A DNA stretch of 64,000 nucleotides from a plasmid: the sequence record NZ_CP104760.1. One strand, written 5' to 3'. The notes below the pieces were generated by a model. The model saw only the letters and a program-made list of their open reading frames with translations. It was not told the origin of the DNA and searched no databases. Every line of letters starts with the position of its first letter. Positions within the stretch are counted from its first letter, which is position 1. Made by a program: the position numbers and the translations under genes. Of the stretch, positions 28,656 through 56,604 are shown piece by piece.

Positions 28656-28665
28656 GGAGCGGATT

Positions 28666-29331: not shown

Positions 29332-29356
29332 TAACCGATCCACAGGAGCTGTAACC

Positions 29357-30235: not shown

Positions 30236-30297
30236 ACCGACTGGCGCGCAGGCTGGCGAATAGCCCGTTTGTCAGCCGCTTAACTGAGTGAAACAAC

Positions 30298-33041: not shown

Positions 33042-33052
33042 GAGATAACGCG

Positions 33053-34078
33053 ATGCGCTGGAAAAAAACGCTACAGCTGATTGATGTGCACTGTGAAGGT
33101 GAGATAGGCAAAGTCATTACGTCGGGCGTCATAGATATTCCGGGCGCCACGATGCTCGACAAGATGAATTACATCAACGAGGTCGATGACAGTCTGCGCC
33201 GTTTAGTCACGCTGGAGCCGCGCGGCTGCCTGCAGATGTCGGTAAACCTGCTGCTGCCGCCGACGGTGCCGGGGGCCCATGCCGGTTTTATCGTGCTCCA
33301 GGCGGACAAAGCGCATCCAATGTCCGGCAGCAACTGCATCTGCGTGGTGACCGCGCTGCTTGAGACCGGCATGGTCGCCATGCAGGAGCCGGAAACCCGG
33401 GTCGTCCTCGACACGCCGGCCGGCATCGTGACGGCCATTGCACGCTGCTCCGACGGCCGCTGTCTCAGCGTTTCGCTCGATATGGTGCCCGCCTTTGTTG
33501 AGCATCTGGATCGCGAGTTCGAGATCCCCGGCGTGGGCAAGCTGAAGGCGGATATCGCCTTTGGCGGCGTCTACTATGCGCTGGTGGATGTGGAGCAGAT
33601 CGGTCTGACCATCGGGCCTGATAACGCGCGCGCCCTGGCGAGCTACGGCGTCGATTTTCGCCACTACATCAACCAGCAGATCAAGGTAGCGCATCCTCTG
33701 CTGCCGCAAATCAATGAGGTCGCCTACGTTATGTTTCGCCAGCGCGAAGAGAGCCGAATCTGGCGCACCTGCACTACGCTGCCGCCGGGGCGGGTCGATC
33801 GCTCACCCTGCGGCACCGGCAGCTCGGCAAACCTGGCGACGCTTGACGCGCGGGGCGAGGTTGAAATCGGCGATGAGCTGACCTCGCGCTCTACCATTAA
33901 CGGCGAGTTCAGGGTGCAGCTGCTCGGCCGTACGCAGGTTGGCGAGAAGTCGGCCGTGTTGCCGCGCGTAACGGGACGGGCCTGGGTTTACGGCTTTCAG
34001 CAGCTGGGGGTGGATCCGGACGATCCTCTCTCCGCCGGCTTTATGCTGAGCGACACCTGGGGACCGGCATTGTCCTGA
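33053..34078 (+). CDS. proline racemase-family enzyme with Cys/Cys catalytic pair (candidate 4-hydroxyproline 2-epimerase)
   Basis: Start ATG 33053 (MRWKKTLQLIDVHCEGE). First catalytic Cys in MSGSNCICVV. Second in DRSPCGTGSSA. A Cys/Cys pair indicates an epimerase/racemase rather than a dehydratase. Confidence 0.75.
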   Translation: MRWKKTLQLIDVHCEGEIGKVITSGVIDIPGATMLDKMNYINEVDDSLRRLVTLEPRGCLQMSVNLLLPPTVPGAHAGFIVLQADKAHPMSGSNCICVVTALLETGMVAMQEPETRVVLDTPAGIVTAIARCSDGRCLSVSLDMVPAFVEHLDREFEIPGVGKLKADIAFGGVYYALVDVEQIGLTIGPDNARALASYGVDFRHYINQQIKVAHPLLPQINEVAYVMFRQREESRIWRTCTTLPPGRVDRSPCGTGSSANLATLDARGEVEIGDELTSRSTINGEFRVQLLGRTQVGEKSAVLPRVTGRAWVYGFQQLGVDPDDPLSAGFMLSDTWGPALS

Positions 34079-34130
34079 CTGATGCTGACCGCTAACATGC
34101 CTTTAAATTCTTCAGCCAAAGAGTCGGATA

Positions 34131-34841
34131 ATGCGCAAAAAAAGTGAGAAAGAAGAGGGAGCAGGACGTCGCCACGGCGGACGTTATATCTATGAAGAGC
34201 TGCGCCGCCAGATCCTCACGCTTCAGCTAAAGCATGGCGAGCAGCTGGATGAGATTTCGCTGGCGACCACCTTTGGCCTGTCGCGGTCGCCGGTGCGCGA
34301 TGCGATGGCGCGGCTGGTCAGTGAAGGGCTGGTGACTATTCTGCCCAACCGGACGGCGATCGTGACGCCGTTTGAGATTGAGGAGTTTCCTAACTACATC
34401 ACGGCGCTGGACTTAGTGCAGCGCGCGGTGACCCGTCTGGCGGCGCTGCATCGCAACGATGAGGATATCGCCCGTATCGAGGCGGCCAACGAAGCCTATA
34501 TGGAGATGGTTTATAAAGGTGACTTTAGCGCCATGACCGAGCGCAACAAGGAGTTTCATCTTGCGATAGCCGCTGCGGCGCGCAACGGCTATCTGGCGAA
34601 ATATTATGACAAATTACTGTCGGAAGGGCAGCGCATACAGCATTTACAGTTCGATTTTATGACGCGTCAGGACGCGCCCTCAAAGCTGGGACGGGATCAC
34701 GATGAGCTGATCGCGGCGATTAAATCGGGCGACCCGGATCTGGCGGACACCAGAGCGCACGAACATACGATGCTGTTTCAAAATCGCTTTCTGACCTTTA
34801 TGCAGCGCAATTTATTAAAGGATATGGAGCTGAACTATTAA
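34131..34841 (+). CDS. GntR-family (FadR/FCD subfamily) transcriptional regulator
   Basis: wHTH: IYEELRRQILTLQLKHGEQLDEISLATTFGLSRSPVRDAMARLVSEGLV. C-terminal FCD-like helical domain. Confidence 0.8.
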   Translation: MRKKSEKEEGAGRRHGGRYIYEELRRQILTLQLKHGEQLDEISLATTFGLSRSPVRDAMARLVSEGLVTILPNRTAIVTPFEIEEFPNYITALDLVQRAVTRLAALHRNDEDIARIEAANEAYMEMVYKGDFSAMTERNKEFHLAIAAAARNGYLAKYYDKLLSEGQRIQHLQFDFMTRQDAPSKLGRDHDELIAAIKSGDPDLADTRAHEHTMLFQNRFLTFMQRNLLKDMELNY

Positions 34842-36994: not shown

Positions 36995-39373
36995 ATGGAT
37001 GTGAATAAAACGGGGAAGCTCGGGCGAATCTGGCTAAGGCTGGTTGGCATTGTCACCGCCCTGGCCGGTCTCTATTTTATCGGCGGCGGGGGCTGGCTGG
37101 TCTGGCTGGGCGGCAGCGGATACTTTTTGATTGCTGGCGTGCTGCTGCTCGTCAGCGGTATTTTACTGTTCCGCCGTCATATGGCGGGCGCACTGCTGTT
37201 CGGCGTTACGCTGATCTTCAGTATTATCTGGTCGTTAATGGATGTTGGGCTGCAGTTCTGGCCGCTCTTTTCCCGACTCTTCGCACCCGCTGCGGGCGCG
37301 GTGCTGATTGCGTTTTCCGTTCCTCTGCTCTCCCGCCATCGTCAAACGCGTCACTGGTCGCTGGCCTTCGGCGGCGTGGTTGCGGTTGGCGTAATTGCCG
37401 CCTTTATCAGCACCTTCCAGCCAAAGGGAATTATCCGCAACGGAGATGTGGCAGCAAACAACGCGTCCGCTCACGATATCGCACCAGACTCCGGCCCTCA
37501 GGACTGGCAAACCTGGTCGGGAGATAGCAGGGGCTCACGCTTTTCAACGCTGAGCGATATCACCCCTGAAAACGTAAACGATCTTAAGGTCGCCTGGACG
37601 GCGCATACCGGCGAAGCCGTGGTGCCGGATAAAGGTGATGCGGAAGATCAGAACACGCCGCTGCAGATCGGCGACAGCCTGTTTGTCTGCACCGCCTACA
37701 CCTCGCTGATCTCCTACGATATCGACAGTGGTCAGGAAAAATGGCGTTACACCGCGGGCCGGGGCAACTCTACCTATCAGCGCTGCCGGGGCATTGGCTA
37801 CTTTGATGCGACCCGCGCTAAAAACGTGGTATCGCCAGGCAGCGCGCTTGACGCCTCCGTCAGCCCGCAGCGGCTGTTCTTCCCAACCGGTGACGGGCGC
37901 CTGGTCGCCATTGATGCGCACACGGGCAAGCCCGCCGCGAACTTTGGCGATAACGGCGTTGTCGACCTGAAGACCGGCATGGGTGAAGTGAAGCCTGGCT
38001 ACTATCAGCAGTCTTCCGCGCCGTTGGTGGCTGGCAACCTGGTTATCGTCGGCGGCCGCGTTATCGATAACTTCGAAACCGGTGAGCCGCCGGGCGTGGT
38101 TCGCGCCTTCGATGCCGTGACCGGAAAGCTGGTATGGGCGTGGGATCCAGGTAATCCTGCGGTGACGCGCGAGCCGCTCTCCCCGGCAGGTTACACGCGC
38201 GGCACGCCAAACGTCTGGGTCGGTATGTCTTATGACGCCGATCTCGGCCAGGTTTACCTGCCAACAGGCAACGCCACGCCGGACTTCTTCGGTGGCGAAC
38301 GTACCCCGGAAGATGACAAGTACAGTTCCTCTATCGTGGCGGTCAATGTGGCAACCGGTCGTCCGGTCTGGCACTTCCAGACCGTTCATCACGACCTGTG
38401 GGACTTTGATGTCACGGGCACGCCGCTGCTGTATGACATTAAAAACGATGACGGCACCGTCACGCCTGCGCTGGCTGAAACCTCTAAAACCGGCATGATT
38501 TACCTGCTCGATCGCCGTAACGGTAAACCGATCGCGCCGATTGAGGAGCGTCCTGTACCACAGGGCAATCTGCCGGGCGAACGCTATTCGCCTACGCAGC
38601 CTTACTCCTCAATGCCGGGTATCGGCAATGAGACGCTGAAAGAGTCCGATATGTGGGGCGCCACGCCGTTCGATCAGCTGCTGTGCCGCATTCGCTTTAA
38701 GTCCAGTCGCTATGAAGGCATTTTTACTCCTCCTGGGCTGGATATGACGCTGCAATATCCAGGATCGCTTGGTGGAATTAACTGGGGAGGCGTCTCAGTT
38801 GACCCCACGACGAATCTGATGTTTGTTAATGATTTACGTCTGGGTCTGTACTACAAAATGGTCGCTGCCAAAGACATTCCACCGGGACAAGGCACCAGCG
38901 AAGGGATGGGGTGGATTGTCCAGAAAGGGCTTCCGTTTGGTACTTTGCGTGAGCGTCTGATGTCGCCGCTGGGTGTGCCTTGCCAGGCGCCGCCTTTCGG
39001 CACGCTCTCGGCGATTAACCTGAAAACGCATCAGCTGGTATGGCAGATTCCAGTAGGCACCGTCCAGGATACCGGGCCGTTAGGGATACCGGTTGGCCTG
39101 CAGATGCCGCTGGGTATGCCAACCCTGGGGCCATCGCTGGCCACGCGTTCTGGCCTGCTGTTCTTTGCGGGTACGCAGGATTTTTATCTGCGCGCGTATA
39201 ACAGCCACACGGGCGAGGAGCTGTGGAAATCACGTCTGCCAGTGGGTAGCCAGAGCGGTCCCATCACCTACCGCTCGGCGAAGACAGGCAAGCAATACGT
39301 GGTTATTTTTGCCGGCGGTTCACCACATTCTGGCAAGCGCGGCGATGACGTTATCGCCTACAGCTTGCCCTGA
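36995..39373 (+). CDS. gcd: membrane-bound PQQ-dependent glucose dehydrogenase
   Basis: 792 aa. 5-TM N-terminus then PQQ beta-propeller. Collinear by eye with E. coli Gcd (LYFIGGGGWL, TVHHDLWD, KTGKQYVVIFAGG...DVIAY). Confidence 0.9.
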   Translation: MDVNKTGKLGRIWLRLVGIVTALAGLYFIGGGGWLVWLGGSGYFLIAGVLLLVSGILLFRRHMAGALLFGVTLIFSIIWSLMDVGLQFWPLFSRLFAPAAGAVLIAFSVPLLSRHRQTRHWSLAFGGVVAVGVIAAFISTFQPKGIIRNGDVAANNASAHDIAPDSGPQDWQTWSGDSRGSRFSTLSDITPENVNDLKVAWTAHTGEAVVPDKGDAEDQNTPLQIGDSLFVCTAYTSLISYDIDSGQEKWRYTAGRGNSTYQRCRGIGYFDATRAKNVVSPGSALDASVSPQRLFFPTGDGRLVAIDAHTGKPAANFGDNGVVDLKTGMGEVKPGYYQQSSAPLVAGNLVIVGGRVIDNFETGEPPGVVRAFDAVTGKLVWAWDPGNPAVTREPLSPAGYTRGTPNVWVGMSYDADLGQVYLPTGNATPDFFGGERTPEDDKYSSSIVAVNVATGRPVWHFQTVHHDLWDFDVTGTPLLYDIKNDDGTVTPALAETSKTGMIYLLDRRNGKPIAPIEERPVPQGNLPGERYSPTQPYSSMPGIGNETLKESDMWGATPFDQLLCRIRFKSSRYEGIFTPPGLDMTLQYPGSLGGINWGGVSVDPTTNLMFVNDLRLGLYYKMVAAKDIPPGQGTSEGMGWIVQKGLPFGTLRERLMSPLGVPCQAPPFGTLSAINLKTHQLVWQIPVGTVQDTGPLGIPVGLQMPLGMPTLGPSLATRSGLLFFAGTQDFYLRAYNSHTGEELWKSRLPVGSQSGPITYRSAKTGKQYVVIFAGGSPHSGKRGDDVIAYSLP

Positions 39374-39446
39374 TGGCAGACGCCTGTAGCAGGTGAACAG
39401 CGCTCAGGAGAGCCGTGAGTGACGCTCGCGGCTCGCCTGTTACTGG

Positions 39447-40358
39447 CTACTGATAGATGATTCCCGGCGGGTTCACCTCTGACGCGCTGACCGCTTCGCT
39501 CGACTGTCCCCACCGCTTTAACGCCTCACGATACTTCCCGTTCTGAATCAGCCCGTTTATCGCCTCCTGCAGCGCGATGTCCAGGCCGTTTCCCTTTTTG
39601 CTTGTGACGGCGACCGGCGTACGATAAGGGCCATAGCCGATGATTTTGGTTTTCCCGTTCAGCGCGACTTTCCAGGAGGCGGAAGAATCTGGACCAAACA
39701 TTGCGTCGGCGCGTCCTGAAAGCAGGTAGAGCATGGAGGAGGCTTCGTCCGACAGATAGATGAAGTCGACAGGCTTCAGCCCCTTTGCCCGGTTTTTTTC
39801 ATCCCAGCTGAGCAGTATTCTCTCCTGATTGGTGCCCGACTGAACGATGATGCGCTTGCCTGCCGCTTCCTCAGGGGAGTTGATGCTGGTCAGGCTGCTG
39901 TCAGCCCTGGCGGAAAAGCTCTGTCGGCTGGAGCGGTAGGTGGCGAAATCAAACTTCTTTTTTCTCTCCTCGGTGACCGCGATATTAAACATGGCCGCAT
40001 CATACCGCCCGGAGGTAATGCCCAGCGGCCAGTCCTCCCAGGCGGCCGGAATAATTCTCAGCTTCAGCCCCAGGCTCTGCGCAATCAGCGACGCGATGTC
40101 CGGATCGCTGCCGATAAGCGATTTATTGTCAGAGCCGAGAAAGTAGAGAGGCGGCGAATGGGTGGTTGAAATGGCGATGGTCAGATAGCCCGGCGTAATA
40201 AAGTGAAAATCTGCAGGTATTTTTGCGACAGCGTTGGGGTTAATCGGGGCGCTCAGCGGTTGTTCATTTTTGACAATATCCACGCGCTTAAAATCATCTG
40301 CATAGAGCGTGAGAGGAAGAAAGAGGGTAAAACAAAGCAGTTTTGCTAATAAGTTCAT
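39447..40358 (-). CDS. ABC transporter substrate-binding protein (polar amino-acid family)
   Basis: 303 aa. Signal peptide. Paralogue of 42771-43712 (shared blocks [39 protein letters not shown]). Confidence 0.75.
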   Translation of the reverse strand: MNLLAKLLCFTLFLPLTLYADDFKRVDIVKNEQPLSAPINPNAVAKIPADFHFITPGYLTIAISTTHSPPLYFLGSDNKSLIGSDPDIASLIAQSLGLKLRIIPAAWEDWPLGITSGRYDAAMFNIAVTEERKKKFDFATYRSSRQSFSARADSSLTSINSPEEAAGKRIIVQSGTNQERILLSWDEKNRAKGLKPVDFIYLSDEASSMLYLLSGRADAMFGPDSSASWKVALNGKTKIIGYGPYRTPVAVTSKKGNGLDIALQEAINGLIQNGKYREALKRWGQSSEAVSASEVNPPGIIYQ

Positions 40359-40559
40359 CGGGCGGTCCTTATCTGGCCGAGGCGTGGCCTTAATTAATAA
40401 TGACGGGAGTGCATATCTTTTTATTCGCGTATCAGCGGGAAATAACGATATCCTGTTTTAACGCGTTTGCTTAATAACCATTCCGGCTATCAAAGCCGTT
40501 ATATTAAATAACGGCTTTTCTTTGGGGCGGGAGGAAAGCAAGAAGACGCTCAATAACTT

Positions 40560-41348
40560 TTATAGCACCCGTGACAGGAACTGTCGGGTGCGCTCATTTT
40601 TGGCATCCGCCAGAATTTCCGCACCGCCGGTTTCAATAATTTTCCCGTGATCCATAAAGACAATATTGTCGGCAACTTCGCGTGCAAACCCAATTTCGTG
40701 CGTCACCACGACCATCGTGGTACCTGAGCGGGCCAGGTTTTTGATAACCTCCAGCACTTCGCCCACCAGCTCGGGATCGAGCGCTGAGGTTGGCTCATCA
40801 AAAAGCATCACGCGCGGCCTGAGCATCAGCGCGCGGGCAATCGCTATACGCTGCTGCTGACCGCCCGACAGATGTCGCGGCCAGGCGTCGGCCTTATGGG
40901 CGAGTCCCACGGTGGTCAGCAGCCTGCTGGCGAGCGCGATAGCCTCATCTTTCTTCAGCTGCTTATGCGCGACCGGCGCCTCAATTAAGTTCTGCAGAAC
41001 GGTCATATGGGGGAAAAGGTTAAAGTTCTGAAAGACGTAACCCACGTTAATGCGTTGCTTAAGGATCTCCTTCTCCTTAAGCTCGTGAAGCCGATCGTTT
41101 TTCTTTCTGTAACCGATATATTCCCCGTCTATTTGAATAAAGCCCTGATCGACGCGCTCAAGGTGGTTGATGGTTCTTAACAGCGTTGATTTTCCCGAGC
41201 CGGAAGGCCCCAGAATAACGGTAACGGTACCCGGTTTAATATTGAGCGAAATATCATCCAGCGCCTTATGGCGTCCAAAGTATTTTGTGATGGATGAAAT
41301 CACGATCTCACCGCGCAGAGGCTTATCGAAATCGACGGCTTTAAGCAT
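40560..41348 (-). CDS. ABC transporter ATP-binding protein
   Basis: Walker [13 protein letters not shown] signature [15 protein letters not shown]. Walker [13 protein letters not shown]. Confidence 0.85.
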
Positions 41349-42254
41349 TTAATTTTCCTCTACGGCCTGGATGGATTTTACGCGTGAGAATAAAGGTTTC
41401 AGCGATCCTTGCGGGCTGCGCTGCGCGCTTTTCGCCAGATGCCGTTCGACAAAATACTGAATGGCGGAGAGTGCCGTAGTGATAATCAAATACCAGGCTG
41501 CGCCCACCATCAGCAGCGGAATGACCTCCTGGTTGCGGTTGTAGATCATCTGAATGGTGTAAAACAGCTCCGGCATGGCCAGCACATAAACCATCGCGGT
41601 TCCCTTCGCCAGACTGATGATTTCATTAAAAGCAGTAGGAATAATGGCTCTAAGCGCCTGCGGCAGGATAATGCGCAGGGTTCTGCGCCGCGCGGAAAGC
41701 CCCAGCGCTGCGGCTGCCTCAAACTGGCCATGATCGACGCCCATAAAGCCGCCGCGAATGATCTCCGCGCTGTAGGCGGACTGTACTAATGTCAGGCCGA
41801 TCACCGCGGCGGGAAACTGTCCAAGCACGTTGATCGTCGGGAAACTGCCCCAGCTCAGCGTGGTAAAGGGGATGCCTATTGAGAGCCGGTCATAGAGATA
41901 GGAGAAGTTATAAAGCACGATTAGCACCACGATCAGCGGCAGCGAGCGAAACAGCCAGATATAGCCCCAGGAGAGCGTCCGCAGCAGCCATGAGGATGAC
42001 ATACGCGCCATCGCGAGCAGGCCGCCAAACAGCAGGCTAAGTACGGTGCCCCACAGCGTCAGCAGCAGCGTCTGCCATAAACCGTGAATAATAACCGGAT
42101 CAAAAAACCATCGCGCAAATACGCCCCATTCCCAGCGCGGGTTCAGCGCGACTGACTGAATAATCCCGGCGAAAATCGCCAGCGCGAAGATACTGCCTGC
42201 GATCCTTCCGGGATAGCGCGCCGGAACGACTTTTAATGTGTGGTGTTTATTCAT
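41349..42254 (-). CDS. ABC transporter permease (polar amino-acid type)
   Basis: 301 aa, multi-TM. Directly abuts the ATPase gene. Start overlaps the GNAT stop by 1 nt. Confidence 0.8.
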   Translation of the reverse strand: MNKHHTLKVVPARYPGRIAGSIFALAIFAGIIQSVALNPRWEWGVFARWFFDPVIIHGLWQTLLLTLWGTVLSLLFGGLLAMARMSSSWLLRTLSWGYIWLFRSLPLIVVLIVLYNFSYLYDRLSIGIPFTTLSWGSFPTINVLGQFPAAVIGLTLVQSAYSAEIIRGGFMGVDHGQFEAAAALGLSARRRTLRIILPQALRAIIPTAFNEIISLAKGTAMVYVLAMPELFYTIQMIYNRNQEVIPLLMVGAAWYLIITTALSAIQYFVERHLAKSAQRSPQGSLKPLFSRVKSIQAVEEN

Positions 42255-42769
42255 CAGGAATTCACTTCAAGAGGGTCAATGGCCTTGCGGAAACCCAGTC
42301 GGCCGTCGTAAGGAGGCAGCGAGTAGCGCTCCAGATCGCCGCTCAGATCGTGCAGGGCGTGAAAACCGTGGCGCAGATAGAGCCGGGTGGCGCCGCGCTG
42401 CCGGAAGCCGGTTGTCAGGTAGATCTGGCTATAGCCCGCTTTCGCCGCCAGTCTCTCCAGCTCCGATAATATTTCTCCCGCCAGGCCCTGCTGGCGAAGA
42501 TCGGATCGCACCCAGATGCGCTTGAATTCGGCGGTCTGCGCGTCATAGCGTTTAAAGCCGCCCATGGCGAGGATCTGGCCCGCCTTCTCCAGCACGATAA
42601 AGCCACCCTGAGGCGGCAGATACCATTCGGTTTGTTCAGGCACGGCGTGACGAGAAAAGTAGTCGCCATAGATGCTGGCGTACTCTTCCATTAGCCCTTT
42701 CATAATCTCTGCGAGCGCCTCGTCAGCCGGCGAGACGAGGCGAAAAGCGTAGCTGCTCTCCAGCGGCAT
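42254..42769 (-). CDS. GNAT family N-acetyltransferase embedded in transporter operon
   Basis: 171 aa. GNAT motif RQQGLAGEILSELERLA. Confidence 0.75.
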   Translation of the reverse strand: MPLESSYAFRLVSPADEALAEIMKGLMEEYASIYGDYFSRHAVPEQTEWYLPPQGGFIVLEKAGQILAMGGFKRYDAQTAEFKRIWVRSDLRQQGLAGEILSELERLAAKAGYSQIYLTTGFRQRGATRLYLRHGFHALHDLSGDLERYSLPPYDGRLGFRKAIDPLEVNS

Positions 42770-42770
42770 A

Positions 42771-43712
42771 CTAATCTCCCAGTCCTGGCGGATTAATTTC
42801 AGAGCGATCGATTTTTTCGATCCCCTCGCCCCAGCGATTCAGCACCTTGAGGTAGTCACCGTTTTCAATAACGCCGTTAAGCGCGACGTTAACGGCGTTT
42901 ACCAGCCCTGAATCTTTTTTAACGGCCGCGCCGATATGTGCCGTTTTCGGCCAGCCGCCTGCCACGCTGCCGACCCGATGCGTAGTGCCCGTCAGGGCGG
43001 CTTTCCAGGCGCCGATCACATTAGGGCCAAAGTAGGCATCTGCGCGTCCCGATTGCAGCGTCAGATTGAGCATCGCTTCATCGCGGGAATAAACCGGAGT
43101 GAAGGGTTTAAGCCCTTTCGCCTGATTCTGCTTGTCCCAGGCCAGCAGCACCGCTTCCTGATTGGTGCCGGAGGTCACGATAATGCGCAGCCCGGCAATA
43201 TCCTCTGGCTTAGAGATTGAGGTAATGGGGCTATCCTTTTTCACGTAGAAGCCCAGCGTATCGCGGCGATAGGTGGCGAAGTCAAACTTTGCCTTGCGCG
43301 CGTTCGTTACCGTTACGTTGGTGATAGCGGCATCATATTTCCCTGCGATAACGCCCAGCGGCCAGTCTTCCCACGAGGTCGGGACGATATTCAGCTTCAG
43401 GCCCAGGCTATCCGCGATCAGCCTTGCCATATCGACCTCGCTGCCGAGCAGGGTTTTATTGTCGTCGGCATAAACAAAAAGCGGGGGAGAGTTATGTGCC
43501 AGTACTGCCACGGTAAAGTAGCCGGGCTTTACAAAATGAAAGTCCTTTGGCAGCACGGCAAGCGCCGCGGGATTTTCAGGCGTATCGACAGGTTGTTTAT
43601 TCGCTTCGAGGCTGATGGGCTGACCGTTCAGCGAGACAGCGTTCTCATCCGCCAGCACCGGACAGGTGGCGAATAACAGCAGAGCGACTGAAAGCGTTTT
43701 TTTGATATTCAT
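42771..43712 (-). CDS. ABC transporter substrate-binding protein (second copy)
   Basis: 313 aa. Signal peptide [21 protein letters not shown]. Confidence 0.75.
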
Positions 43713-45025
43713 TGACCCGCCTGCCGTTGCGTTATTTTTTTGTTCAGCAAATTCTCCCGCAGGGTATTTGCGCGATAGCTTTTGGGCGTAAGCCCTCTTT
43801 CCTGAAGAAGCGGCACGACCCGATCGACGAAGCGGGGAAACGTATCGGGCGTTCCGCCCATGATGATAAAACCGTCTGCTGCTCTGTTCTCAAACCAGTG
43901 CTGCAGTCCGTCGGCTACCTCTTCTGCCGTGCCGATAAACACCGGACGCGGCGTCGCGGACTCCAGCGCCGCCTGGCGTAGCGTAAAGCCTTGCTCTTTC
44001 GCCTTGCGTTTGATTTCGTCGGTATAGCCGCGAAAGCTGTTCTGCCCGAGCGTGCCCAGCTCCGGGAAAGGTTCGTCGAGCGGATACTGTGAAAAATCAT
44101 GGTGATCAAAATAGCGACCCAGGAAGTTCAGTGCCTCCTCGACGGAAACCAGCCCGGCGACGGACTGATACTGCTTTTCCGCATCCTCGGCGGACTCACC
44201 GACAATCACCGTCACGCCCTGCAAAATCGCTAAGTCAGCTTCGCTGCGCCCATAGTTGTTCAGCTCTCCTTTCAGGGATTCATAATAGGCCTGCGCTTTT
44301 TCGACGCTGTCCTGACGGGTAAAGACCGCCTCTGCCTGGGCGGCGGCGAGCGCGATCCCCGCATCGGAGGTGCCCGCCTGGAATATAACCGGCTGCCCCT
44401 GCGCCGAACGTCCTATATTCAGCGGACCCTGAACCTGAAAATATTTACCTTCGTGATTGAGGGTGTGCATTTTCTCCGGTTCAAAGAACTGGCCCGTCTC
44501 TTTATTGCGCACAAACGCATCTTCATCCCAGGAGTTCCATAAGCCTTTCACCACCTCGATATACTCTTGCGCTATCTGGTAGCGCTCTCCATGGTCGGGA
44601 TGCTTCTCGCGGGAAAAGTTTTTCGCCGAGCCCTCAAGCGGCGTCGTGACCACGTTCCAGCCCGCCCGCCCATCACTGAGATGATCGAGGCTCATAAATT
44701 GCCGGGCAACGGTAAACGGTTCGCTGTAGGAGGTCGAGACGGTGCCGACCAGTCCGATTTTGCGGGTTACCAGCGCCAGCGCGGAGAGCAGCGTCATCGG
44801 CTCAAAGCGGTTGAGAAAGTGGGGCGCGGATTTTGCGTTAATAAAGAGGCCATCGGCGACAAAGACAAAATCGAAAATTCCCTCTTCCGCCTTGGTCGCA
44901 ATGCTGCGTGCGAAATCAAAGCTGATGCTGGCATCTGCCTGCGCGGTTTGATGACGCCATGCGGACATATTTCCCATCGCGCCATGGATCATGGTGCCAA
45001 GATGCATTTTCCTGTTTTTCATCAT
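43709..45025 (-). CDS. NtaA/SnaA/DszA-family FMNH2-dependent monooxygenase (LLM class)
   Basis: 438 aa. Length and N-terminal pattern [18 protein letters not shown]...[10 protein letters not shown] typical of the nitrilotriacetate-monooxygenase-component-A family. Stop overlaps the SBP start (ATGA). Confidence 0.7.
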
Positions 45026-45110
45026 ATTCCAGATTAATCAATGCCGGTAAATAAGACGTATGAATAGCCGCCGCTTTTACCTGGGGCGGCTATTTATCCC
45101 TGACGTCACG

Positions 45111-46100
45111 TTAATTAAGCGATCTATTCGCTAGCAGTTCGATCGATCTCACCCGGGCGCGCGCTTCCGCGACAGGCGTATCAACGATGAATTCATCAAT
45201 ATGATATTTCTCATGCAGTCGCGTCAGCTTTTGGTGGATATCGCCAGCGGTGCCGTGCAGCAGCGACGGCATCCGCTTTTCAATGGTGTAATGCTGATAC
45301 CCCGCCTGCCTGACGTAGAGTTCAGCCAGCTCGTAAGTCGAGACGTTAACGCCCGGCTGGCCTTCGGCCATGACGTGATAAACACACAGGCCCTCAGCGA
45401 GCGCGGCGGCCTCAGCCTGGGTGGTGGCGGCGATGACCTGAAGCGCCACCAGCGCTTTTTTGCCGCCGCTGTGCTCCGTGTAGGCCAGCAAAGCGTCCTG
45501 CATCAGCTGTTCGTCGCCGTTGATGTGTGCCGCATAGACAAAATCCCACCCCAGCTCGGCGGCGAGCCGGGCGCTTTCCCGGCTGGCGCCGAGTAAAAAT
45601 CGCGAGGCGGGCTGAGCAGGGGCGGGCGTCGCCTTGAGTTCCTTCTGCTTTTCCTCCCGCGCTGGCCGTAACCAGCCGTCCAGCAGGCGAATCTGAGCGG
45701 CAAAGTCGCCTTTTTCTGCGGGATTCACGCCCTGTTGCAGCGCCCTGGTGGCAAGCGGCAGGCCGCCGGGCGCTTTACCCACACCTAAATCGATACGGTC
45801 AGGCGCAAGCGCAGAAAGCAGGTTAAAATTCTCCGCTACTTTATAAGGGCTGTAGTGCTGGAGCATGACCCCGCCTGAGCCGAGCCGAATGCTTTTCGTC
45901 TCGCCGATCGCTCTGGCGATCAGCAACTCCGGCGAAGGGCTGGCCAGGGCCGTGGAGTTATGGTGCTCCGCAAACCAGTAGCGGTGATAGCCTAATCGCT
46001 CCGCTATCTGAACGAGCTGCAATGAGCGAGACAGTGCGCTCGCTGCGTCTTCAGATTTATCGAGCGGGCATTTATCCAAAATGCTTAGCTGGTAGGTCAT
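45111..46100 (-). CDS. luciferase-like (LLM class) flavin-dependent oxidoreductase
   Basis: Start ATG 46100 (MTYQLSILDK) after AGGAGG. Motifs YHRYWFAEHH and LGSGGVMLQHYSPYKVAE typical of LLM monooxygenases. Confidence 0.7.
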   Translation of the reverse strand: MTYQLSILDKCPLDKSEDAASALSRSLQLVQIAERLGYHRYWFAEHHNSTALASPSPELLIARAIGETKSIRLGSGGVMLQHYSPYKVAENFNLLSALAPDRIDLGVGKAPGGLPLATRALQQGVNPAEKGDFAAQIRLLDGWLRPAREEKQKELKATPAPAQPASRFLLGASRESARLAAELGWDFVYAAHINGDEQLMQDALLAYTEHSGGKKALVALQVIAATTQAEAAALAEGLCVYHVMAEGQPGVNVSTYELAELYVRQAGYQHYTIEKRMPSLLHGTAGDIHQKLTRLHEKYHIDEFIVDTPVAEARARVRSIELLANRSLN

Positions 46101-46754
46101 TTGTCCTCCTGTATACATGTTTGCATTTTTTTATTTATTGCCTGTGATTGCAAAGAACAAAAAAGCAAAAACAAATTATCTATCTGGCAATGCAGCAAGC
46201 TTTTTTCTGGGCTCGGTTGTCACTTTTCTGCTTTTTCACTCTTTTTCGCTAAGCGATCAACTTTAAATTAAGGGCGTTTGCCGGGCGGTGGGGAGCCAGA
46301 AAATCAACGGCTTTAACCGCTTATTAGCGGGAAAGGATTGCCTGACAGGATGAATGATATGAAACCATCAAGATAAAGCGTGACAAATACCTTTTTTAAC
46401 TAACAGTTATTTCTAAGCGTGAGATCGCTAAGACAAGAAGAAAGAGAGTGGCAATTACTGATTTTCAGCCAACGGGATTGTTATTATTTCAAACAGGCGA
46501 ACCCGGGTAGTAATCGATCCCACCCTAAACGAGACGTTAAAGCGTAACGCGGCGGATGAGGATAGTGAGCATTTTGTAACTTTTTGATGTTTAAATATTG
46601 GCTGTTTCGCCCGAAGGAAATTTACGCACGGGCATCAACTTTTAGCCGTTAACAAGGCGTTTGAGCAAGAGGGCGGGAAAGAGAGGTATTTTGCGGTAAA
46701 GAACTGACGGCACAGGTTTGCGTCGGGAAAATAACCGAACGCCATCTTATGGGA

Positions 46755-47085
46755 TTAATAGTAGATTAAAATAACACACTCCAGCTCTTCCTGAAGACGG
46801 TATACTTCTTTGAAGTAACTTTGGCATTCGGCGTTGTTATAGTTAGCCGCATCATTATTTTTCAGGCGCTCACATATCTTGCCATAAAGAAAGCGGTAAG
46901 CGTGCTTGTCCGAATTTTCGCCATGGCAAACAAAATGAAGGAAATTCAGGGTATGTCCATACTCTATAAAGCCCAGGGCCGCAGCCGGGATAAAATATGC
47001 CTTTTTGATAATCTACCAGTCGATATTTTCTGAACAGGGCTTTGTTTCCCTTTGGGCGGGGCGCTACCTTCTTACGCGGCGGCAC
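46755..47085 (-). pseudogene. frameshifted low-GC gene remnant
   Basis: Two overlapping protein-like frames on the minus strand (…YRLVDYQKGIFYP… and …FIPAAALGFIEYGHTLNFLHFVCHGENSDKHAYRFLYGKICERLKNN…). Neither has a credible start. GC is visibly lower than the flanks. Confidence 0.3.
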
Positions 47086-47207
47086 CTGATACCATAACCG
47101 TTGCTGGCGGCAAAATTAACTTTAACGCTTCAGTTATAGCGGCCCCTGTGCGGTATATAATTCATCTGATGGCCAGCATGCCACGCTGGGTCAGATTGCC
47201 AGAGACA

Positions 47208-47251
47208 GCGCGTAATCCCCTTACCCGTTACACCGGCGAAGGATTACGCGC
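47208..47251. repeat. 11-bp perfect inverted repeat GCGCGTAATCC…GGATTACGCGC with 22-nt spacer
   Basis: Read directly. Lies 48 bp downstream of the iutA stop on the transcribed strand. No T-run. Confidence 0.5.
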
Positions 47252-47298
47252 GGAAATGTCCTCACAAAAGCGCTGACAGAACAGATGCCAGCCTGAAA

Positions 47299-49488
47299 TC
47301 AGAACACCACAGAATAATTGAGACCAAAGGTTCGGCCACGGCCCTTATAGGTATAAAGGCCTGCATCGCCATAGGTCGGGCTGTAAAGCCCCGGCGCTCG
47401 CTGACCCCATACCGTGGTGTAATCCTTATCCAGCAGGTTCTCTACGCTGAAGCTGAGTTTTCCGACCGGCAGAGCGTAGCTTCCCAGGAAATCAACGGTG
47501 TTATAGCCATCGATTTTTTTCCCATCAGCGTCGGTGAGATCAAAGGTTTGCGTGCTCTGGACGCGCAGATTCCAGTCGCCCGGCGCCCAGTTCAGCCAGG
47601 CGCTGACTTTAGATGGGCTGGCGCTGTCTATTGTCAGCTTCTCCCATTTATCCTCTACGCGCGTTTCCGATTTGATGATATTGAAGTTAGAGCCGGTGCT
47701 CCATTCGCTGTCGTCAAAGAAATAATCAACCTGTCCCTCAACGCCATAAATGCGACGCTTGTCGTCATCCAGATTAATGGTCATGTCGGTTTTATTGATA
47801 CTGATGGTTTTATCTGAGAGCGAATAATAGGCCGCGAGCTGGGTGCGCAGGTTATCCCCGGTAAAGCGCCAGCCTAGCTCATAAGAATCAACTTTAATCC
47901 CATCCAGTCTGGAATCATTCACGTTAACGCTGTTGGTGAGGTTGTAATGGCCGTTAGCTAACCGGTAGGTGCCTGAGCCGTAATATTTTGCCAGGTCCGG
48001 GATTTCAAAGCCCTGCGAGAAGTTAAACCATACCTGCTGGCGCTCGGTCAGACGTCCCAGAATGCCGGCATTGAACAGCAGATTATTGTAGTCAGTTGAA
48101 CCGCCAGGAACTGCATCCGCCGACCTCGCCTGGCCGGTGGCGATCGCCTGCTGCTGCGCATAGCCAACAAAGTCGTCTACCTTGTTTTTCGTATACTGAT
48201 AGCGAACGCCGCCGCTTAGCGTGATGGCATCGATGTCGTAGCTGGACTGCAGGAATGGCGCGAGGTTGGTAATGCTGTAGCCCGGATAGCGCCCGACATT
48301 ATAGGCATTTTTCAGCGTCATCCCGCCGCTTTGCGCAGCCGTGTTCAGGTCAAAGAATTGCTGGTTAGCGTCAAAGGTTTCATGATCGACGTCGACACCG
48401 TAAGTCAGCGACAGAGAGTCGACCGGTTTACTGTTAATGGTCAATTTGCCGCCATAAAAATCGGTTTTTTGCTGCGAGGCGCCGATGCTGGTGACGCGAT
48501 TGCGGCTGAGGGTAGGGAAAGGGTAGAAGCTCAGGTTTTCGTCACGATAGTAAACCTGTGCCACCAGATCCTGACCCATAAAATCGGTATTGGAATACTG
48601 CAGGTTAATCAGATGGCGCTCGGTTCCAGGCAGACGGTCAGAGTCGAGACTGCCAGAATTGTGGGCGTTGCCGGAGCCGGTTACGGCCGAGAAGTTCTCG
48701 CCCAGATAAAGCCCGTGTTTGCCGTCTGATTCGCTTTTGAAGTACTGCGTGGTCAGCTGCAGCTGCTGGTTCTCATCAATATTGAGCGTGCCGGTGCCCA
48801 TAATATCCAGGCGATCGGAGTACTGCAGCCCGGTCTGGGTATTATCGATGATCGCCTCATTGCCTTTGCCATCATACCAGCCGCCATAGCGCTGATAGGC
48901 AACCGACAGGCGGCCCGCAGCCTTGTCGTCGCCGCCGCTCACGGCAGCGGCAATATTTTCATCACGATCGTTATGGCTGTTGAACCCGCTCTTAAACCCG
49001 GTTTGCAGTTCCGCTTCTGTTCCCGCCTGGCCTTTTTTAGTGACGATGTTAATCAAGCCGCCGGTACTGCCGCCGCCGTAGAGCGAGGTTGCGCCTGAAA
49101 TCACCTCAATACGTTCGATATTAAAGGGATCGATCGCGTCCAGCTGGCGGCTGTCGCTGCGCGATGAGTTGAGGCGAACGCCGTCCACCATCACCATCAT
49201 CGAGCGACCGCGCATGTTCATGCCGTAGTTCGTTCGCCCCTGACTGCTGACGTCCATGCCTGGAATAAGCTGCGCCAGCACCTCCTTCAACTCTTTACCG
49301 CCCTGAACCTGCTGCTCAATCTCAGCCTGCTCAATGATCCAAGTGGTTTGCGCCATCTCCGCCACGCTGCGATGCGTGCGGCTGGCGGAGACGACCATCT
49401 GTTCTTCTTTTGGCTCTTCAGCCCAGGCGCTGGAAGAGAGCATTGCGAGTAAACAAGGATTTAAAACCCACAGATACGGCTGTTTCAT
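47299..49488 (-). CDS. iutA: TonB-dependent ferric-aerobactin receptor
   Basis: 729 aa. Collinear by eye with E. coli IutA (VAEMAQTTW, IQGGKELK, NYGMN, LNSSRTDSRQLD, GATSLYGGGSTGGLINIVTKKGQ, C-terminal KGRGRTFGLNYSV-F). Signal peptide and C-terminal Phe. Confidence 0.9.
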   Translation of the reverse strand: MKQPYLWVLNPCLLAMLSSSAWAEEPKEEQMVVSASRTHRSVAEMAQTTWIIEQAEIEQQVQGGKELKEVLAQLIPGMDVSSQGRTNYGMNMRGRSMMVMVDGVRLNSSRSDSRQLDAIDPFNIERIEVISGATSLYGGGSTGGLINIVTKKGQAGTEAELQTGFKSGFNSHNDRDENIAAAVSGGDDKAAGRLSVAYQRYGGWYDGKGNEAIIDNTQTGLQYSDRLDIMGTGTLNIDENQQLQLTTQYFKSESDGKHGLYLGENFSAVTGSGNAHNSGSLDSDRLPGTERHLINLQYSNTDFMGQDLVAQVYYRDENLSFYPFPTLSRNRVTSIGASQQKTDFYGGKLTINSKPVDSLSLTYGVDVDHETFDANQQFFDLNTAAQSGGMTLKNAYNVGRYPGYSITNLAPFLQSSYDIDAITLSGGVRYQYTKNKVDDFVGYAQQQAIATGQARSADAVPGGSTDYNNLLFNAGILGRLTERQQVWFNFSQGFEIPDLAKYYGSGTYRLANGHYNLTNSVNVNDSRLDGIKVDSYELGWRFTGDNLRTQLAAYYSLSDKTISINKTDMTINLDDDKRRIYGVEGQVDYFFDDSEWSTGSNFNIIKSETRVEDKWEKLTIDSASPSKVSAWLNWAPGDWNLRVQSTQTFDLTDADGKKIDGYNTVDFLGSYALPVGKLSFSVENLLDKDYTTVWGQRAPGLYSPTYGDAGLYTYKGRGRTFGLNYSVVF

Positions 49489-49510
49489 TTGTTATTTTTT
49501 TCCGATGAAT

Positions 49511-50836
49511 TTAATACTGAAATGAATTAACGGATTGTTGATGATCCTGTTCGTGCTGCTCCGGCTGCTGTGTACGCCAGTGGATCACGCCAGGGGTGGT
49601 GGTCAGCTCGAAGGGCGCTTCCGGGTGCGCGCGATTGAGAATGCGGGCGGCACGCCAGGCCATCAGGCTGAGCTGGGGTTCAGCAATGCCAAGGCGCTGC
49701 ATCCCGGCATTGACGGCAAAAAGGCAATTACTTTCCGGCCCGTCCCAGTTAAGGGTGAAATCAGTGTTGATCTGGAAATTTTCGTCGCGGTCCAGCGGCA
49801 GGCGGTGCGCGACTGGCGCCAGGAAGGCTGGGCGCACAGCGCGGTAGCCGGTAGCAAAAATCACCACATCCGTTATCAGCTCCTCTTCTCCGCTGTCGAG
49901 GTGATGACGCAGCCCCAGCCGCTGCGCATCCTGTTCCTGCTGAAGAGAGATAACCGAACGTGACGGCATCAGACGCGCCCACGGCTGCTCGCGCAGCACT
50001 TCAAACCGGTGATACATCGCCCGATAGATGGCGAGAAGCGACTCGCTGGTAATGCCGTCTGACGTCATCTTCTGTTCGTTCAACATCTGCTGACGTGCGC
50101 TTTCGTCCAGAGTCGAGAAGCTTTCCAGATATTCCGGCGTGAAATACTCATTGGCAAAGGCGGCTTCATCCAGCGCGTTGTAGTTGTTGCGGCGCGATAC
50201 CCAGTTCAGTGAGGCGGGCTGGCCCCACTCGCCGCGGAAGATATTGAGGAAAAGATCGGCTCCGCTCTGTCCTCCGCCGACAAGAGTGACGCGCTTATTT
50301 CTCAGGTCTGGCTTGCGCAGCATCATCTCGCTGGCGTGGAAGCAGCGATCGCTCTGTTCAGTGACGCACGCTGGCAGACTGGCCTGTTTGCCAATGCCAA
50401 GGCATATATGTCGCGCCTGAAAACGGTCGTGGGCGGTTTCGACCGTGAACAGCCGGGTCACGTCGTTAAAACTTACGCGCGTTACCGGCTGGTTAAATGC
50501 CAGATTGCTGAGACGCTTCGCCACCCAGGCAAGGTAATCCGCAAACTCCTCTCTGGACACCGTACGCTGTTCAGTGGTCAAGAAGCGGTAGAATTTTTTC
50601 CGCTGTACCAGATAGTTAACAAAGCTATAGCGGTTCGTCGGCTCAACTGCGCTCACCAGATCTTTGAGAAAGCAGGTTTGCATCGCGCAGTCTGGCACCA
50701 TCATGCCCGGATGCCAGGCGAAGTGGGGCTTACGCTCAAGAAACAGCGAGCTAAAACCTTCCAGTCCTTCAGCCAGAGCGGCAACGCTGAGGTTGAACGG
50801 TCCGATGCCGATGCCAATGAAATCATATACCTTCAT
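49511..50836 (-). CDS. iucD: L-lysine N6-monooxygenase
   Basis: 441 aa. FAD motif DFIGIGIGPFNLS. HPGMMVPDC. QKMTSDGIT. Collinear with E. coli IucD. Confidence 0.9.
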   Translation of the reverse strand: MKVYDFIGIGIGPFNLSVAALAEGLEGFSSLFLERKPHFAWHPGMMVPDCAMQTCFLKDLVSAVEPTNRYSFVNYLVQRKKFYRFLTTEQRTVSREEFADYLAWVAKRLSNLAFNQPVTRVSFNDVTRLFTVETAHDRFQARHICLGIGKQASLPACVTEQSDRCFHASEMMLRKPDLRNKRVTLVGGGQSGADLFLNIFRGEWGQPASLNWVSRRNNYNALDEAAFANEYFTPEYLESFSTLDESARQQMLNEQKMTSDGITSESLLAIYRAMYHRFEVLREQPWARLMPSRSVISLQQEQDAQRLGLRHHLDSGEEELITDVVIFATGYRAVRPAFLAPVAHRLPLDRDENFQINTDFTLNWDGPESNCLFAVNAGMQRLGIAEPQLSLMAWRAARILNRAHPEAPFELTTTPGVIHWRTQQPEQHEQDHQQSVNSFQY

Positions 50837-52560
50837 TTTGCAGACTCCTGGGTGACCAGATAGAGAGGGTTATCAAGATCGGTGAGATAGTCAGGCAGCA
50901 TTCGGCTGCCGCCGTCATGCTCTGAGAAAGTCAGCTTTACCGGATTGAGGATGACGCGGATGATCTGTGGCCTGAACAGGTCAAACATAGCGAAGCGCTC
51001 GGCCATCTCCGGGTGTTGCGCCATGTACTGCTGAACCGTGCTGGCGAGCAGGCGGTAGAAATGGGGTTCGTCGATGCCCGACTGCAGCGTGAGACGAGAG
51101 ATAAAGCGCAGCACGGTGACAAAATGTCCGGTCTGCAGGTCGTGAATAAGATAGTCGGCGCTGAGGCGCGCGGTGACATCCTTAACGGCGGCGGGCAGCG
51201 ACGCCGCTTCCGGAAAATCTTTATCAACGAGGCGCATATCGCCCTGAAAATCCTTGAGCAGAATGCGCTGCGGTATAGCGTCCTTCATCACCAGCGTGAC
51301 GTTCTGACCATGCGCAATAAGCGCCACGCCGTAGCGACACATCAGGTGATAGAAGGGGATCACGACCGCTTCAAACATCCGGCTAAGCCAGCTTGCCGCA
51401 TCCAGACCCGAGCGTTTGATCCAGGCGTCAATCAGCGGACGGCCGGCGTTATCCGTTTCCATCAGCGCCGCCATCAGCACGGCCTGCTCGCCCGGCTGCA
51501 GATAGCAGCAAGGGTTTTCGCGCCAGATAACGCCGAGCATCTCCTGGTAGCGATACGGCGCTTCAGGTAGCGCGGCATAGCCTTCGTGGGATAAATAGCC
51601 TGCGGCAGGCTCCGCCAGAATCTGGGCGCCCGTCGCGCGTAGCGTTTTATCCTGAGCGAACTGCGTCTTTAACCAGCCGGATGCCAGCGGCCCAGCGGCG
51701 ATATACTTTCCAGGGATGCCGCGATAGCAGGAGGTGTTGTAGATTGTCAGCGGCAGTTTGATATCGAACCGCGCCGGTCGGCTAACGTTGGTCAGCGTGC
51801 GCAGCGACTGCTGGGCCAGATAGTGGTCACCGAAGGCACCCAGCTCAACCATCTCTCCGCGTGCCAGATAAGGCAGAAAATGAATCGCGATTTTTTGCTG
51901 CCACTGCCAGGGGTGGACGGGCACTGCGATCCAGTTTTCGTCGAGTCCGGCTGACTGCCAGCGCTGATGAAAACGCGTTAACTCCGCGTCATTCATGGCA
52001 CTGGCGATCAAGGCAGAGATGTCGCACGCCTCATCGTGGCGCCAGATAAATTTATCCCGTCGAACCGCTATCCAGTGCAGGCGAAACCGGTTCCCATACT
52101 CCGGCGCATAGGCGCGCAGGGCATCCAGTCCCCAGCCGCGGCGGCCTTTGTTGAAGATAAACTTTGGATGCCCGCTGAGCAGGCACTGCAGCTCATCCGG
52201 ATCACGATCAATCAGATCGTCCGCGCTCAGGGAGTGGCGCGCTTCCAGCAGCTGTAAATCGCCGCGCAGCGTGGCGTAGAGATCTTCCAGATGCTCTGCC
52301 GTCTGGGCATCGCTCATCTCCAGCACGACGGCCAGCTGACGCAGCAGCGCGTCAGCGTCCATCTGCCCGCCGCGTAGAGAACCGGCATCGATGTGTAGCC
52401 AGCCCCAGATGCTGCGGCTGGCCGTAAATTCCCAGCGTGCCGCGCCAACGGCGATTTCCCAGCGTCCTGCTTTTTTTTCCACCGCGCGCAACGCCTGCTC
52501 GTACTCAAGCTCGGCGAGCATTTTGGCAATCATGTCGCGATTAACGCGTTCCCACATCAT
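50833..52560 (-). CDS. iucC: aerobactin synthase (IucA/IucC family NIS synthetase)
   Basis: 575 aa. IucA/IucC-family blocks. Position between iucB and iucD. 4-nt overlaps at both ends. Confidence 0.85.
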   Translation of the reverse strand: MMWERVNRDMIAKMLAELEYEQALRAVEKKAGRWEIAVGAARWEFTASRSIWGWLHIDAGSLRGGQMDADALLRQLAVVLEMSDAQTAEHLEDLYATLRGDLQLLEARHSLSADDLIDRDPDELQCLLSGHPKFIFNKGRRGWGLDALRAYAPEYGNRFRLHWIAVRRDKFIWRHDEACDISALIASAMNDAELTRFHQRWQSAGLDENWIAVPVHPWQWQQKIAIHFLPYLARGEMVELGAFGDHYLAQQSLRTLTNVSRPARFDIKLPLTIYNTSCYRGIPGKYIAAGPLASGWLKTQFAQDKTLRATGAQILAEPAAGYLSHEGYAALPEAPYRYQEMLGVIWRENPCCYLQPGEQAVLMAALMETDNAGRPLIDAWIKRSGLDAASWLSRMFEAVVIPFYHLMCRYGVALIAHGQNVTLVMKDAIPQRILLKDFQGDMRLVDKDFPEAASLPAAVKDVTARLSADYLIHDLQTGHFVTVLRFISRLTLQSGIDEPHFYRLLASTVQQYMAQHPEMAERFAMFDLFRPQIIRVILNPVKLTFSEHDGGSRMLPDYLTDLDNPLYLVTQESAK

Positions 52561-55246: not shown

Positions 55247-55268
55247 TAGTCAGTCTCACTGAATAAAT

Positions 55269-55287
55269 GATAATGATTATCGTTATA
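55269..55287. promoter_or_regulatory. Fur box GATAATGATTATCGTTATA (16/19 to consensus) in iucA/shiF divergent promoter
   Basis: Compared by eye to GATAATGATAATCATTATC. On the iucA strand it overlaps a putative -10, with a TTGCCA -35-like hexamer upstream. Confidence 0.7.
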
Positions 55288-55410
55288 ATAATTATTTCAT
55301 TTACAATGGCAACTAATTTTGCAATATTTGCATACATATCATGTCAGGTATACCCCTGTTTTTAACGGTGTCTTTACATTTATGCGTCAGTTACCTCAAA
55401 ACTGCTTAAT

Positions 55411-56589: not shown

Positions 56590-56604
56590 GCGTCAGGAAA
56601 AAAT

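Follow-up and report, generated by a model that had tools for sequence, protein, structure and literature searches.

A plasmid-borne operon of Pantoea piersonii as a candidate Gram-negative counterpart of the Bacillus pathway for S-alkylcysteine salvage

A seven-gene operon (39447-46118, minus strand) in a 64,000-nucleotide stretch of plasmid DNA (NZ_CP104760.1; the whole stretch is called the window below) was analysed for its likely function. It encodes two luciferase-like monooxygenases (LLM), a GNAT N-acetyltransferase and an ATP-binding cassette (ABC) importer with two solute-binding proteins (SBP). Our favoured reading, which we hold to be probable on balance, is that the operon would import S-substituted cysteines and dealkylate them in order to salvage the cysteine sulfur, and that it would thus be a Gram-negative 'type A' counterpart of the Cmo pathway. 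Salvage of S-alkylcysteines by the Bacillus subtilis ytmI-ytnM operon was reportedly described by Chan in 2014 and Hazra in 2022. That operon encodes SnaA, TcyJKLMN, CmoO, CmoI, CmoJ, RibR, SndA and YtnM and salvages S-alkylcysteines, and both the sulfoxidation by CmoO and the C-S cleavage by CmoJ are established chemistry for the Bacillus enzymes (PMC10863075). The host of the present operon is Pantoea piersonii and the replicon is a 278-kb plasmid, the window being 99.1% identical to plasmid p277859 (NZ_CP115897.1) of P. piersonii URMC-2103A041, on which all seven genes carry generic RefSeq names. A preliminary description of this DNA had framed the system within the Enterobacteriaceae; this has to be corrected, as P. 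piersonii belongs to the Erwiniaceae and falls outside that family in the strict sense.

In the proposed scheme, every biochemical step of which is derived from homology and conserved gene context, the two paralogous periplasmic SBPs would capture an S-substituted cysteine and deliver it to the permease, presumably a homodimer, and its ATPase. The GNAT is predicted to N-acetylate the amino group of the imported substrate. The CmoO-like LLM would then oxidise the thioether to a sulfoxide, and the CmoJ-like enzyme, using FMNH2 and O2, would cleave the S-alkyl C-S bond to give an aldehyde and N-acetylcysteine sulfenic acid. The latter would be reduced to N-acetylcysteine, and deacetylation would yield cysteine. 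Because the plasmid copy holds no deacetylase, this final step would depend on an enzyme acting in trans; the M20 protein encoded on p527820, another plasmid of URMC-2103A041, is the obvious candidate, or else some other cellular deacylase may serve; the N-acetylcysteine deacetylases of B. subtilis are functionally redundant in vivo (PMC12757645). The FMNH2 would be supplied by a housekeeping flavin reductase resembling Fre or SsuE.

The monooxygenase pair and its conserved gene context

For the comparison with Bacillus, BLASTP was run against the B. subtilis ytmI-ytnM operon (L084) and the B. halotolerans yxe/scm operon (L087), the latter being used for scm (its YxeP shares 92% identity with that of B. 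subtilis). The NtaA/DszA-family enzyme of the window (43709-45025, minus strand; TIGR03860, NtaA/DmoA, 530 bits) was found to be 54.7% identical to CmoJ/YtnJ over 426 aa (509 bits) and 47.4% identical to the B. halotolerans ScmK/YxeK (419 bits). The identity between ScmK and CmoJ themselves is 48.1%, which places the window enzyme with CmoJ. A PDB search returned YtnJ (1yw1/6ask) with an E value of 1e-161 and 541 bits; DszA scored 262 bits and EmoA 196 bits. Assignment of the enzyme to SsuD, SfnG or RutA was tried and rejected, its NCBIfam scores (57, 81 and 73 bits) lying far under the respective cutoffs (518, 383 and 498 bits). We predict this CmoJ-like protein to be an FMNH2-dependent C-S cleaving enzyme. 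The second LLM (45111-46118, minus strand; MsnO8 family; PF00296; TIGR03558, 325 bits) is 40.4% identical to CmoO/YtmO over 332/335 residues (E 8e-70) and is predicted to be a thioether S-oxygenase. At the sequence level, both a CmoJ-type and a CmoO-type enzyme of the Cmo pathway are thus found in the operon, and the view of the preliminary description that the two LLMs are counterparts of YtmO and YtnJ is borne out.

The comparative sample comprised 80 loci from a scan of one genome per species, for which gene content was determined by tblastn. In 77 of the 80 loci, which fall into two architectures, CmoJ has a CmoO-like gene no more than 10 kb away; in Bacillus the two genes adjoin. Type A, which has the gene order of the window, accounts for 62 of the 80 loci and is distributed over Enterobacterales and Acinetobacter (Pantoea, Klebsiella pneumoniae ATCC 13883, Enterobacter, Kosakonia, Citrobacter, Leclercia, Cedecea, Erwinia, Pectobacterium, Dickeya, Tatumella, Acinetobacter and others). 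In 58 of these 62 loci the operon adjoins a closely related M20 gene, which in 54 stands between the two LLM genes. The type-A M20 proteins (TIGR01891) are 41-51% identical to SndA/YtnL, the K. pneumoniae protein being 47% identical to SndA and 48% to ScmP, and SndA/YtnL and ScmP are demonstrated N-acetylcysteine deacetylases (PMC12757645). The main support for the reading in which the substrate would be acetylated, sulfoxidised, cleaved and deacetylated is that CmoO-like, CmoJ-like, GNAT and M20 genes recur together. Other type-A loci with no closely related M20 gene beside the operon are those of Tatumella ptyseos, Dickeya oryzae and Dickeya undicola; P. eucrina has its M20 gene about 5.5 kb upstream of the operon, on the opposite strand.

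Type B (L063, L069, L071, L072, L074, L077, L080 and L081; Rhizobium, Comamonas, Burkholderia, Ewingella, Rahnella and one Erwinia) has a CmoO-like LLM and a SnaA-like GNAT within about 10 kb of CmoJ. Its GNATs are 37-46% identical to B. subtilis SnaA, and it is only in type-B loci that true SnaA-like GNATs occur. Since these loci pair both monooxygenases with a SnaA-like GNAT, the CmoO/CmoJ pair is tied to an acetylation step. Also, tandem ABC ATPase genes are present directly upstream of CmoJ in most type-B loci, and extra NtaA-family paralogues in some. In E. coli the operon was found in none of 5,426 complete genomes, where tcyN-like fragments were the sole matches.

Strain URMC-2103A041 itself carries a second, complete copy, an M20-containing type-A paralogue on the 528-kb plasmid p527820, and an operon of the p527820 type is present on 73 Pantoea plasmid records. 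The window operon is a divergent paralogue with about 70% identity to all the rest, and its proteins share only about 50-84% identity with those of any other copy. It may be noted that the paralogous operon on p527820 lies beside a second candidate cluster for organosulfur or peptide scavenging (L086 1-6146); its genes encode an SBP of the TIGR04028 family, two permeases, a double ATPase, an FMN-dependent LLM of the TIGR04027 type and a protein with an alkylhydroperoxidase domain. At the place upstream of the operon that this cluster occupies, tandem ABC ATPase matches on the opposite strand are also seen in several other Pantoea type-A loci (L015, L019, L033, L037, L049 and L057). In 30 Enterobacteriaceae species, for instance at L005 15452-16069, a GST-like gene stands no more than about 5 kb downstream of the type-A operon and often follows SBP2 directly, which would fit a link to the catabolism of glutathione S-conjugates; the window has no such gene.

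Acetyltransferase, importer and operon layout

The GNAT (42254-42769, minus strand; PF00583) occupies the same operon position in 63 of the 80 loci, that is the 62 type-A loci and Serratia L076, which is without an SBP. Its acetyl-CoA motif A (RQQGLA) aligns with those of SnaA and ScmL, to which the whole protein is 18-22% identical in a MAFFT alignment (22% to SnaA), whereas SnaA and ScmL are 44% identical to each other. None of the NCBIfam models reaches its cutoff, the weak sub-threshold matches being ArsN-type resistance acetyltransferases, and a search of solved structures gave weak matches to uncharacterised acetyltransferases alone. As judged from these comparisons, the window GNAT belongs to a subfamily distinct from SnaA/ScmL.

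The two binding proteins, SBP1 (42771-43712) and SBP2 (39447-40358), both encoded on the minus strand and of the SBP_bac_3 family (PF00497), are paralogues with 48% identity, and their signal peptides end at VLA/DEN and LYA/DD, respectively. The permease (41349-42254, minus strand; PF00528), of the polar-amino-acid-type (PAAT) class and 301 aa long, is 30-36% identical to TcyL/M and 31% to ScmN; its best NCBIfam match is a cystine permease, below cutoff, and it presumably works as a homodimer. The ATPase (40560-41348, minus strand; PF00005) is 49% identical to TcyN and 51% to ScmO, and scores 307 bits with the TcyN model against a cutoff of 406. The importer is of the TcyJKLMN transporter class and has two SBPs, but a single permease gene and SBPs of weak similarity. 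Among its parts the ATPase agrees with the Bacillus parallel; the likening of the two SBPs to those of Bacillus in the preliminary description is not supported (23-25% identical to TcyK), and there is one permease gene as opposed to two.

The ORF list together with Pfam and NCBIfam searches confirmed all the coordinates, the order and the families given earlier for the seven minus-strand open reading frames (ORFs). From the LLM to the NtaA-like gene there are 85 bp, the NtaA-like and SBP1 genes overlap by 4 nt, and 1 bp separates SBP1 from the GNAT; the GNAT and permease overlap by 1 nt, the permease and ATPase abut (0 bp), and a spacer of 201 bp (40359-40559) follows between the ATPase and SBP2. 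The overlaps of 1-4 nt had been described correctly, but the range of 1-85 bp for the gaps was in error at this last junction. The K. pneumoniae locus (L005) has overlapping ATPase and SBP2 ORFs at this junction, and in the other type-A loci the tblastn matches for the two genes are about 10-100 nt apart. The spacer contains an 11-bp perfect inverted repeat, AAAGCCGTTAT-N5-ATAACGGCTTT, at 40518-40492. No U-tract follows this palindrome, and a promoter and terminator scan found no canonical terminator in the spacer. The hairpin forms on folding, yet the 201-bp spacer as a whole is not unusually stable (z -1.17). The palindrome may be an operator or a weak attenuator before SBP2, and the absence of a U-tract makes it resemble an operator more than a terminator. 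No gene remnants were found in the three intergenic regions by blastx and blastn against all ORFs of the fetched loci, there being no coding remnant in the 201-bp spacer either, and no Rfam family matched within 39000-47400 at E <= 0.1.

The start of the LLM gene is more likely at 46100 than at 46118, as judged from the AGGAGG Shine-Dalgarno sequence at 46110-46105, which precedes the former, and from the RefSeq annotation of the plasmid, which has the 990-nt form. From the comparison of upstream regions we infer a probable operon promoter and leader at 46101-46330 (minus strand). Type-A operons of Enterobacteriaceae (L005-L073) have a strongly conserved block here, AAATGTAAATTAATTGTTTCTC followed after about 18 nt by TAATAATGCAGACATGTT, the whole lying about 100 to 20 nt before the ATG of the LLM gene. 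The window retains AATGCAAACATGT at 46127-46115, which matches the block TAATAATGCAGACATGTT. We take the conserved upstream block to be a candidate activator site with a -10 element. No consensus sigma-70 promoter was found upstream of the LLM gene, which would fit an activator-dependent promoter; counts in the promoter and terminator scan were at or below the shuffle expectation. The conserved AT-rich block, which in the orthologues lies upstream of the core promoter, suggests activator control, without identifying either CysB or Cbl. The plasmid annotation of the window stretch has no regulator gene adjoining the operon, and a tblastn search with YtlI gave weak LysR-family matches (25-33%) away from the operon, with none on the plasmid copy of the window operon.

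On p277859 an aerobactin cluster lies upstream of the operon and gcd downstream of it. An unusually long intergenic region, a 1.18-kb AT-rich stretch (46119-47298; GC about 43-49%), separates the operon from the siderophore receptor gene; in it we found no ORF of at least 80 aa, no similarity to ORFs of the fetched loci and no Rfam match. The aerobactin-type siderophore cluster itself (47299-57492) lies directly upstream of the operon and is complete, with iucA-D and a TonB-dependent receptor on the minus strand and a divergent MFS transporter and siderophore-interacting protein; related blocks on plasmids of Pantoea agglomerans and of Cronobacter show 84% and about 76% identity, respectively. 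A hydroxyproline-type amino-acid catabolic cluster is present at 25135-34841 (LysR, SBP, ATPase, two permeases, DapA-like lyase, D-amino-acid dehydrogenase, aldehyde dehydrogenase, proline-racemase-family dehydratase and GntR regulator). Also, an ORF of 1,855 aa (9734-15301), labelled merely 'ATP-binding protein' in RefSeq, may encode a hybrid sensor kinase because it is flanked by two response-regulator genes.

Weighing of alternative readings

Several results weigh against the salvage reading. In the 64-kb window there is no SndA-type M20 deacetylase (best E 1.9) and no homologue of CmoI, RibR or YtnM, and the last three also gave no tblastn match in any fetched proteobacterial locus. Over the extent of the window the plasmid annotation shows no flavin reductase, in agreement with the preliminary description. 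The GNAT shows no BLASTP similarity to SnaA/YtmI (E 2.4) and no match to ScmL/YxeL, and its substrate is assigned solely from its operon position; its earlier designation as SnaA-type is not supported by this E value or by the 22% identity in the MAFFT alignment, and at the sequence level the window operon holds no SnaA (YtmI)-type N-acetyltransferase of the Cmo pathway. The SBPs are only 23-25% identical to TcyK, with E values of 1e-6 to 1e-7 in BLASTP (SBP1 25%, E 2e-6). The CmoJ-like protein of the window branches off before all the other type-A copies and its branch is long, so that its specificity may have shifted. Moreover, ScmK and CmoJ differ in both substrate and chemistry at 48% identity; therefore the 55% identity to CmoJ is suggestive only and leaves the substrate unfixed.

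There are also competing explanations. One is that the operon imports some other modified amino acid for detoxification or catabolism, with the GNAT as a protection or resistance step and the LLMs acting on another heteroatom bond; a plant S-alk(en)yl-cysteine sulfoxide, a methionine or homocysteine derivative or a non-sulfur amino-acid analogue could be considered. A GNAT that forms its own subfamily with weak sub-threshold matches to ArsN-type resistance acetyltransferases, SBPs without a close characterised relative, the divergence of the window copy (about 70% identity to the others) and the functional diversity of the NtaA/DszA family would all agree with this. But a Cmo enzyme is the best characterised relative of each LLM by a wide margin (541 bits for YtnJ against 196 for EmoA), the CmoJ-like protein is far below the cutoffs of SsuD, SfnG and RutA, and the orthologous operons carry an SndA/ScmP-like N-acetylcysteine deacetylase, so we regard this explanation as unlikely, though it is the one to be taken most seriously after the salvage of S-substituted cysteines. 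Breakdown of S-(2-succino)cysteine (2SC) of the Scm/Yxe type, in which N-acetyl-2SC would be the direct substrate of the NtaA-family enzyme, as it is of ScmK, is less plausible still and in our view quite doubtful. It could draw on the 47.4% identity to ScmK, on the single permease and the ATPase, which are slightly better matches to ScmN and ScmO than to TcyL/M/N, on the type-A M20 protein, marginally nearer ScmP (48%) than SndA (47%), and on the JGI label 'N-acetyl-S-(2-succino)cysteine monooxygenase' attached to some CmoJ-family proteins. Yet the enzyme is nearer to CmoJ (54.7%), ScmK being equally distant from the window enzyme and from CmoJ; its 47.4% is below the >50% identity used by Hillmann et al. 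for YxeK orthologues (PMC9706529); and a conserved CmoO-type sulfoxidase stands alongside, for which the ScmK route has no need. Also, the window operon has no ScmL-like GNAT, no M20 gene for a ScmP-type deacetylase and no MmgE/PrpD-family gene or ScmQ homologue.

The least likely explanation, to which we give very little credence, is that the window operon duplicates the megaplasmid operon, is redundant and decaying and has no function of its own, the loss of M20 being the first step of erosion. The missing M20 gene, the 201-bp spacer that breaks a tight operon and the long branch could be read in this manner. However, all seven ORFs are intact in two strains and, with 34 synonymous and 11 nonsynonymous codon changes between the window and p277859 (pN/pS about 0.10), they are evolving under purifying selection; the copy is therefore not decaying. 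A recent duplicate is ruled out by the roughly 30% protein divergence from the other copy. The 85-bp junction between the LLM and NtaA-like genes holds no M20 remnant and hence no recent deletion scar, at least three other lineages are also without a closely related adjoining M20 gene, and in P. eucrina the gene is displaced. A further reading, which we offer only tentatively, is that the plasmid operon is a subfunctionalised paralogue without a deacetylase whose substrates are its own, such as S-alk(en)yl-cysteine sulfoxides from plants or particular conjugates of cysteine with electrophiles, that it depends in trans on the M20 enzyme of the megaplasmid operon, and that type A as a whole has recruited a different GNAT subfamily in place of SnaA/ScmL for the equivalent protective acetylation.

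Meaning and relation to known systems

The link to the Cmo pathway, if correct, turns seven or eight generically named genes per genome into a specific and testable hypothesis for an operon type that occurs in many Enterobacterales, among them Klebsiella pneumoniae, Enterobacter, Citrobacter, Pantoea, Pectobacterium and Dickeya, and in Acinetobacter. The hypothesised sulfur source, S-alkylated cysteines, is what glutathione-based detoxification of electrophiles and the organosulfur metabolism of plants leave as end products. As to how such a system would be built, the acetylation step would be filled by a different GNAT lineage and the deacetylase appears dispensable within the operon, one strain keeping two diverged copies on two plasmids. 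The value lies in refined annotation and pathway evolution, with mild interest in the non-orthologous GNAT and in the deacetylase-less second copy; the operon is a variant of a known pathway within a common, poorly annotated operon family, and no new principle is involved.

Two-component FMNH2-dependent LLM monooxygenases coupled to ABC importers and controlled by CysB or Cbl are known from Ssu, Tau, Sfn and Msu, which desulfurise sulfonates or sulfones in E. coli and Pseudomonas. The window operon resembles these in the predicted LLM-class FMNH2-dependent C-S cleavage, in the linkage to an importer, in the need for a separate flavin reductase and in presumed sulfur scavenging. Unlike them, it has an amino-acid-type importer in place of a sulfonate-type one and a GNAT but no SsuE-type reductase, its predicted product is cysteine and not sulfite, and neither of its LLMs comes anywhere near the SsuD or SfnG equivalog cutoff in score.

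The Bacillus scm (yxeK-Q) operon, which serves the breakdown of S-(2-succino)cysteine, and its 2SL variant in Dickeya dadantii and Enterococcus italicus (PMC9706529, PMC12757645) are closer in strategy, as they too combine an acetyltransferase, an importer, a cleavage enzyme and an M20 protein; the single permease, the ATPase (51% to ScmO) and the NtaA-like enzyme (47% to ScmK) of the window have their likeness here. The differences are the CmoO-type second monooxygenase of the window, the absence of ScmQ and of a 2SL lyase, and a GNAT unrelated to ScmL at the BLAST level. Through the 2SL variant, this strategy has been experimentally tested in a member of the Enterobacterales. The loci fetched here from Dickeya (L068 and L070) are a separate locus without 2SL. 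L068, from Dickeya oryzae, was considered as the published Dickeya yxe/2SL locus and ruled out, 2SL and M20 being absent nearby. The preliminary description had stated that no equivalent was characterised in Enterobacteriaceae. This holds for the present operon type, for which full-text literature searches returned no Gram-negative study, but has to be qualified in that a related acetylate-cleave-deacetylate locus of Dickeya dadantii, of the 2SL/yxe type with a lyase route for 2SC, is already characterised (PMC9706529).

The nearest known system remains the B. subtilis ytmI-ytnM operon, whose Cmo pathway is described by Hazra and Begley as 'widely distributed in soil bacteria' (PMC10863075). 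The parallel with ytmI-ytnJ drawn in the preliminary description is upheld for both monooxygenases, the ATPase and the overall logic, and not for the GNAT and the SBPs; it is also incomplete, as the window operon has no deacetylase. In contrast to the Bacillus operon, that of the window is plasmid-borne, begins with the monooxygenase genes and has no adjoining YtlI-type regulator; its GNAT is not of the SnaA type, its SBPs show 23-25% identity, it has one permease gene, and CmoI, RibR, YtnM and the deacetylase are absent. What the two have in common are homologues of CmoJ and CmoO, a GNAT, a polar-amino-acid-type importer with two paralogous SBPs and a TcyN-like ATPase, and, as far as the predicted steps go, the order of acetylation, oxidation and cleavage, with an SndA-like M20 protein (41-51%) encoded in the orthologous operons of Enterobacterales.

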